From Rickettsiales bacterium (GTDB lineage Bacteria; Pseudomonadota; Alphaproteobacteria; Rickettsiales; JABIRX01): 47,416 nucleotides of DNA. The first letter of the stretch is position 1. Every line of letters starts with the position of its first letter. The stretch spans positions 1 through 47,416 of the forward strand of contig JAWUXM010000048.1 of the NCBI GenBank assembly GCA_034111325.1, read 5' to 3'. The notes beneath the pieces were generated by a model. That model saw only the letters and a list, made by a program, of their open reading frames with translations, did no database searches and was not told where the DNA came from. Below are positions 11,766 through 13,264 of this stretch, one piece after another. The translations under genes and the position numbers were made by a program.

Positions 11766-13264
<1,499 letters not shown>

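Follow-up and report, generated by a model that had tools for sequence, protein, structure and literature searches.

A CCUCU 16S rRNA tail encoded in a Rickettsiales genome whose AAGAGG-type sites are equally common in canonical-tail relatives

Few bacterial RNA motifs are as strongly conserved as the CCUCC core of the anti-Shine-Dalgarno (ASD) region in 16S rRNA. In a survey of ~20,600 taxa, variant tails without CCUCCU were reported for 128 (~0.6%); according to the authors, no bacterial antiSD variant turned out to have a perfectly complementary SD variant (Amin et al. 2018, PMC6107228). The same survey describes Mesorhizobium huakuii 7653R, in which the tail GATCACCTCTTAG coexists with an AGGAG SD motif, and offers a recent mutation or a sequence error as the explanation. 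For the archaeon Acidilobus sp. 7A, a CCUCU core is reported together with matching G-to-A changes in the SDs, as judged by energy analysis, and ~53% SD-using genes (PMC10783764). The clearest published natural SD-ASD covariation is that of the Flavobacteriia, in which ASD2 (AUCUCAUU) is complemented by an SD2 in front of rpsU (Jha et al. 2020, PMC7797042). Absence of CCUCC together with absence of an SD signal was reported for 15 of 1182 genomes (Lim, Furuta and Kobayashi 2012, PMC3457768), and these 'non-anti-SD genomes' are described as small, AT-rich and often host-associated, with C-to-U changes predominant and CCUCC lost in all 16S genes. Lineage-specific shifts in the pairing bases have also been described, as 15 antiSD groups (PMC10783764) and as 'shifted' SDs (PMC6107228). 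For Rickettsiales, a search of the full-text literature on SD/anti-SD gave nothing relevant, as judged by titles and the openings of abstracts.

We analyzed a Rickettsiales assembly of 1,353,947 bases (1.35 Mb) in 51 contigs, 90.8% complete and with 37.9% GC, in which the window (the whole 47,416-nt stretch of DNA under analysis) carries a 16S rRNA gene at 13264..11765 on the minus strand. RF00177 covers the gene from end to end (model 1-1533; 1555.8 bits, cut-off 50), and helix 45 is aligned by Infernal without non-standard pairs. It is the single RF00177 match in the whole assembly; since the assembly is only 90.8% complete, a second 16S copy is possible. The gene ends in GGAUUACCUCUUAU, so that the RNA ends in ...GCGGCUGGAUUACCUCUUAUAGAUG, and the plus-strand letters TAAGAGGTAA at 11766-11775 correspond to the RNA UUACCUCUUA within the tail GGAUUACCUCUUAUAG. 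The features of the tail are as follows.

11765..11777, minus strand: 13-nt 3′ tail after helix 45, GAUUACCUCUUAU, with the anti-Shine-Dalgarno region (from the sequence and the Infernal alignment)
11768, minus strand: variant base U; at this place the relatives' ..CUCC has its second C (E. coli C1539), unless the tail here is one C shorter (ACCTCC in 23 of 23 relatives)

The 13 nt after helix 45, GAUUACCUCUUAU, hold no CCUCC, and Infernal placed ACCUCUUAU against the ACCUCCUUu of the model. With the tail of the nearest relative, ACCUCCUUAAAG, as the reference, loss of one C fits equally well as a C-to-U change, and by either route the mature tail would read CCUCUUA. The non-canonical CCUCU tail claimed in the original prediction is thus encoded in the only 16S gene found, with the last C of CCUCC missing. 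No RF02541 match to a 23S gene was detected anywhere in the assembly, and neither a tRNA nor a 23S gene lies downstream of the 16S gene in window 11300-13700. The 16S gene stands alone among protein-coding genes, with the next ORF beginning ~465 nt past its 3′ end; either the rRNA genes are unlinked, or the 23S gene is unassembled.

We then asked how widespread such tails are. Among 40 related genomes sampled, all 23 with a 16S 3′ end, four of them from the same family, carry ACCUCC, and the variant stands alone in this set, a difference that is not due to chance. In an order-wide sample of 401 genomes, GCGGCTGGATTACCTCC was found in 257 and GCGGCTGGATTACCTCT in three, namely the genome under study, G041 and G067; the rest showed neither string, mostly having no assembled 16S end or a different helix 45. 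A scan for TGCGGYTGGATYACCTCTT across one genome per species (185,579 species) returned 39 matches, 13 of which were true 16S tails: four in a Rhodothermales group, two in related MAGs, two in archaea and single cases in other bacterial lineages. One of the two related CCUCU MAGs is identical to the G067 locus. The genome under study is 88-90% identical in 16S to the members of its family and only 79-82% identical to the other CCUCU genomes, so the tail must have arisen in the order on at least three separate occasions. It is also the sole representative of its genus among the genomes sampled, making its variant a singleton.

Two CCUCU MAGs of another family share 93.2% 16S identity and both carry CCUCUUUUUUU, and a 1.0-Mb CCUCU genome of the same order has CCUCUAAUGUCC. 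The tail GGAUCACCUCUUAAAGAG is common to four Rhodothermales/Salinibacter-like genomes, including the cultured isolate Longimonas halophila, and, from the sequences, looks like a clade-level CCUCU anti-SD variant. Tails in the family under study differ right after CCUCC (CCUCCUUAAAG, CCUCCUGAAAU, CCUCCGACUAA and CCUCCUGAUUU), and the majority of the order carries CCUCCUUU or CCUCCUUA; the divergence after CCUCC suggests relaxed constraint on positions 1540-1542 in the family.

Since the variant is a singleton in a metagenome assembly, its true tail might be CCUCC, with one C dropped or miscalled in conserved rRNA; loss of a single base from the CC run would suffice, and the same doubt was raised for M. 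huakuii 7653R, with its GATCACCTCTTAG beside an AGGAG motif, in the survey that describes it (Amin et al. 2018, PMC6107228). Read cover was sought and none was found: no public read run contained more than 0.11 of 62 sampled words of window 11300-11900. Contigs built from four runs were short, amplicon-like 16S sequences ending at ~11768-11783, with adaptor-like loose ends at 11783, and because they stop short they are uninformative on the variant base. A scan of metagenome contigs for the tail plus its flank gave nine chance matches and none in a 16S gene. The motifs typical of a canonical tail, AGGAG (26 observed against 10.4 expected) and AAGGA (49 against 29.8), are also still somewhat enriched before starts in this genome, which counts in favor of an error. 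Against an error, 31 of the 37 ORFs in the 47-kb contig have a family match and none of these is split or truncated, indicating that consensus indel errors are rare. Moreover, with only 13 of the 39 matches in 185,579 species being true 16S tails, the CCTCT string is too uncommon for a chimera with another organism in the sample to be a likely source, and other lineages of the order have fixed an identical change, among them the two MAGs at 93.2% 16S identity. Finally, as detailed below, the family relatives show an enrichment of G opposite position 1539 that this genome lacks. On this evidence we regard the variant base as probably real and an assembly or consensus error as unlikely.

The window contains all four AAGAGG-type sites that had been cited as partners of the tail, before ybaB, groES, a membrane gene and yejB. 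They are listed here together with a canonical AGGAGG.

42506..42515, minus strand: TAAGAGGTAA, the 10-nt complement of the tail (TTTAAGAGGTAAAAATG), before ybaB 42503..42180 (YbaB/EbfC, TIGR00103)
27174..27180, plus strand: TAAGAGG (TTAAGAGGATAAAATG), before groES 27186..27473 (GroES family match)
5085..5092, minus strand: AAGAGGTA, in the last codons of an RlmD-like gene, with 9 nt to the downstream ATG at 5077
43691..43699, minus strand: AAGGGGTAA (AAGGGGTAAAATG), before yejB 43689..42613
18248..18253, minus strand: canonical AGGAGG upstream of the zntB/corA-like gene 17271..18242, with 5 nt to its ATG

The ORF downstream of AAGAGGTA, at 4499..5077 on the minus strand, had no family match.

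From such sites the original prediction had proposed a co-evolved, naturally shifted ASD/SD code. Spelled out, this would mean that C1539 became U, that many GGAGG sites then became AGAGG, and that AAGAGG is now the cognate ribosome-binding site. We compared the genome with four CCUCC-tail relatives, using 0.4-0.78 Mb from each, three from the same family (G005, G002 and G010) and one from another family of the order (G037). Genes in all five genomes were ORFs of at least 100 aa, the longest non-overlapping ones being kept, with the first ATG/GTG/TTG taken as the start. This rule is crude: the L31 family match of ORF 37841-38218 (minus strand) sets in only at residue 21, which makes an internal codon the probable true start and illustrates that the rule over-extends some genes in the SD tallies. 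Motifs were counted when their 3′ end lay 2-14 nt from the start. The counts, which compare genomes of 28-33% GC with one of 38% GC and so are not GC-matched, are as follows.

Genome under study: 1133 genes; base before GAGG (A/G/T/C) 50/12/24/7; AAGAGG 18/1133; perfect tail matches of at least 8 nt across the variant base 10/1133
G005: 616 genes, 27.7% GC; base before GAGG 12/4/1/0; AAGAGG 7/616; tail matches 2/616
G002: 654 genes, 28.5% GC; base before GAGG 12/7/11/2; AAGAGG 7/654; tail matches 3/654
G010: 521 genes, 30.0% GC; base before GAGG 16/5/8/0; AAGAGG 9/521; tail matches 4/521
G037: 292 genes, 32.9% GC; base before GAGG 10/2/3/2; AAGAGG 6/292; tail matches 0/292

Several observations on the genome under study favor such a code. 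Enrichment of 5-mers was measured at -22..-3 of the called starts against position-preserving column shuffles, and AGAGG was the most over-represented (51 observed against 10.8, z=12.5). Ten genes carry tail matches of 8-11 nt across the variant base, and the base just 5′ of GAGG is A slightly more often than composition predicts (odds 1.51, p=0.047). The canonical-tail relatives, however, show the same pattern. AGAGG is likewise over-represented before their starts, and AAGAGG precedes 18 of this genome's 1133 genes, compared with 29 of 2083 pooled from the relatives (Fisher p=0.65). The ratio of AGAGG to GGAGG is 50:12 here and 50:18 in the pooled relatives (Fisher p=0.41), and that of AAGAGG to AGGAGG is 18:8 here and 29:8 there. 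Long tail matches do not differ significantly either (p=0.15), and G010, with the CCUCC tail CCUCCUGAAAU, has the 10-nt TAAGAGGTAA, identical to the ybaB 10-mer, twice. The preference for A before GAGG shows no gain over the relatives (p=0.58-0.72).

Predicted binding did not distinguish the tails. In ViennaRNA duplex calculations, the tail encoded in the genome let 25.7% of leaders reach -4.4 kcal/mol or lower and a canonical tail 27.3%, against 16.0% of shuffles with either, and the two tails were likewise interchangeable in the relatives. Across the whole genome, the ratio of AGAGG-N4-9-ATG to a reversed control, a measure confounded by codon structure, is 1.90 here, close to the 1.78 and 1.77 of G002 and G010; on the same confounded measure the other CCUCU genomes lack an excess, with 167 against 168 (0.99) in G041 and 130 against 116 (1.12) in G067. 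GGAGG-N4-9-ATG, equally confounded, lies above its control in both (118 against 67 in G041 and 93 against 53 in G067). Neither the AGAGG nor the GGAGG counts of this kind set the genome under study apart from G002 or G010.

We also compared orthologous leaders, using 559 reciprocal-best-hit pairs with concordant N-termini that cover 375 genes of this genome. In this set, the base before GAGG was A in 13, G in 3, T in 6 and C in 1 case here, and A in 18, G in 9 and T in 8 cases in the relatives. The GAGG core was kept on both sides in only 7 of the 559 pairs, and the sequences indicate that SD sites turn over quickly. None of the nine genes whose orthologue has GGAGG in a relative carries AGAGG here (0/9); all nine lack the GAGG core altogether, so that no G-to-A compensation opposite the changed rRNA base was seen.

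Thus, a variant-specific SD enrichment of the Flavobacteriia ASD2/SD2 or Acidilobus type was not found among these genes, and the canonical AGGAGG at good spacing persists, as at 18253..18248. The genome resembles Acidilobus sp. 7A in having the C-to-U change at the last core position and in still using SD pairing; unlike that archaeon, for which a matching SD change is reported (PMC10783764), its matching motif is not variant-specific. With these relatives of 28-33% GC as the comparison, the proposal of a co-evolved code fails the refutation test that the original prediction had set for itself. Judged by the sequence comparison, it is close to refuted by the canonical-tail relatives, and we consider it improbable. 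A genuine genome-wide co-evolved pair would be notable and usable as a natural orthogonal ribosome, but the evidence here does not show one. The equal frequency of AAGAGG in CCUCC relatives makes the change look like a tolerated one-base drift and not a rewritten start signal, and it carries a general caution: 'matching' A-rich SD flanks need comparison with canonical-tail relatives before co-evolution is claimed.

To place the variant base relative to the pairing actually used, we considered the other enriched 5-mers. In addition to AGAGG, these were GAGGT (36 against 7.0), AGGTA (65 against 21.4) and GGTAA (58 against 20.6), and the GAGGT/AGGTA signal was also present in G002 and G010. Motifs that would draw on positions 1539-1540, GGAG and AGGAG, show little or no enrichment near starts in the family, and in G037, from the other family, AGGAG, AAGGA and TAAGG are enriched instead. 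These motif data show a predicted family register in which GAGGU/AGGUA/GGUAA (GAGGUAA) would pair with UUACCUC of 16S, positions 1532-1538, which the variant leaves untouched; the divergence of the family's tails directly beyond CCUCC agrees with this. This is like the published lineage-specific shifts (PMC10783764, PMC6107228) in that GAGGUAA is used instead of AGGAGG, and unlike them in that the groups described there keep CCUCC. In G005, AACCT (45 against 7.4) and ACCTT (39 against 5.7) are also strongly enriched before starts (z ~14-15), an enrichment seen in none of the other genomes; they may represent a promoter-like or repeat motif.

SD-type sites are also few. GAGG or AGGT occurs at -18..-3 of 171 of the 1133 genes (15.1%), against 5.2% in column shuffles, suggesting that only about 10% of genes carry such a site above chance. 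The single 16S gene found lacks CCUCC, as in the class of Lim et al. (2012); unlike that class, the genome retains an SD-like signal (25.7% against 16.0% by duplex energy and 15.1% against 5.2% by motif). The tails reported for 'non-anti-SD genomes' are strongly degenerate (such as TCTCT, TTTCT and TTTGA; PMC3457768), whereas here one edge base is altered and the SD signal, at 15.1% against 5.2%, is clear though modest. The genome has genes for bS1 (a full-length open frame of 583 aa) and bS21. Pairing of the leader of rpsU, GGGGTAAT, is confined to 1531-1538, short of the variant base. The genome is thus like the Flavobacteriia in having a natural ASD variant in a lineage that seldom uses SDs; it differs in that their variant is described as clade-wide and tied to one autoregulated gene (PMC7797042), while here pairing at rpsU stops short of the changed base. 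Like M. huakuii 7653R, this is an alphaproteobacterium with CCTCTTA at the end of the core and SD motifs that do not follow the change (PMC6107228). In contrast to M. huakuii, reported as SD-rich (AGGAG Z=21.5), the present genome is SD-poor and pairs further 5′, through GAGGU/AGGUA, so the change should matter less here than there.

One set of tests gave a hint that the mRNAs do register the loss of C1539. Once composition is adjusted for, the three relatives from the family prefer G 5′ of GAGG (odds 2.24, p=0.008), a preference that this genome does not show (odds 0.91, p=0.76). The difference between them (p=0.03, rising to p=0.077 with G037 in the comparison) is uncorrected, comes from one of several analyses and rests on 12-18 GGAGG sites. 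Column-shuffle ratios point in the same direction: AGAGG 51/10.8 and GGAGG 12/3.6 here, compared with 41/6.5 and 16/1.7 in the pooled family, a difference of p ~0.09 by hand estimate from the counts. These data weakly support the view that a G-C1539 pair is no longer selected in this genome. A lost G preference without a gained A preference fits a real base change and not a new code. The contrast between odds of 2.24 and 0.91 also counts in favor of co-evolution, beside the mild A preference. A tally over an extended set of start candidates gave a stronger loss of G preference (p=0.005-0.014), and we discounted it because it admits G-rich sites from coding context; among internal candidates of the family, G precedes GAGG in 43 of 119.

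It is conceivable, if doubtful, that this ASD, its loss of C1539 being real, has been caught drifting, with the G preference already gone and the same base changed in three or more separate lineages of the order. If so, the order would form a natural series of erosion or shift of the docking tail once pairing had settled at GAGGUAA and SD use was low.

U pairs with both A and G. Position 1539 would lie at the frayed end, or edge, of the SD helix, where U1539 could wobble with the G of GGAGG and pair with the A of AGAGG; little would be lost, and the change may be near neutral. A lineage with a small genome could fix such a change by drift. The AAGAGG sites would be GAGG(U)(A)(A) cores that lie within A-rich leaders, here and in CCUCC relatives alike, and not compensatory mutations, and most genes would probably start without an SD site, through A/U-rich leaders, with full-length bS1 present. 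We therefore lean toward a true, lineage-specific and nearly neutral change at the 3′ edge of the ASD core (CCUCC to CCUCU, or loss of one C) as the best single account of the data, somewhat better than even. It would mean that the core tolerates a change at its edge once pairing has shifted 5′ in the tail and few genes depend on that pairing.

The adaptation might also have run from mRNA to rRNA. If A already outnumbered G before GAGG, U1539 would lengthen more helices than it weakens and would have been selected. AGAGG indeed exceeds GGAGG already in the CCUCC relatives (40:16 in the three family members and 50:18 with G037), U is able to pair with A as well as G, and the change recurred at least three times in the order. 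The variant tail, however, brings no gain in mean duplex energy relative to shuffles (-0.46 against -0.50 kcal/mol for the canonical tail in this genome), the two other CCUCU genomes have no AGAGG-N-ATG excess by the confounded ratio (0.99 and 1.12), and relaxed constraint accounts equally well for the recurrence. Selection of this kind is thus the least probable of the explanations weighed here, and the nearly neutral edge change remains our preferred reading.

Two further ORFs of the window were examined. ORF 26246-27055 (plus strand, 269 aa) carries a prepilin-type cleavage/methylation domain at its N-terminus and weakly matches the N-terminal part of GspG. A AAGAGGAGGTACAATG at 26845 looked like a strong site but was rejected as a start, since it lies in frame inside this pilin-like ORF. 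ORF 30281-30775 (minus strand) encodes an ankyrin-repeat protein with weak, below-cut-off matches to Dot/Icm Ank effector models. Together, the ankyrin-repeat and prepilin-type ORFs hint at a host-associated lifestyle.
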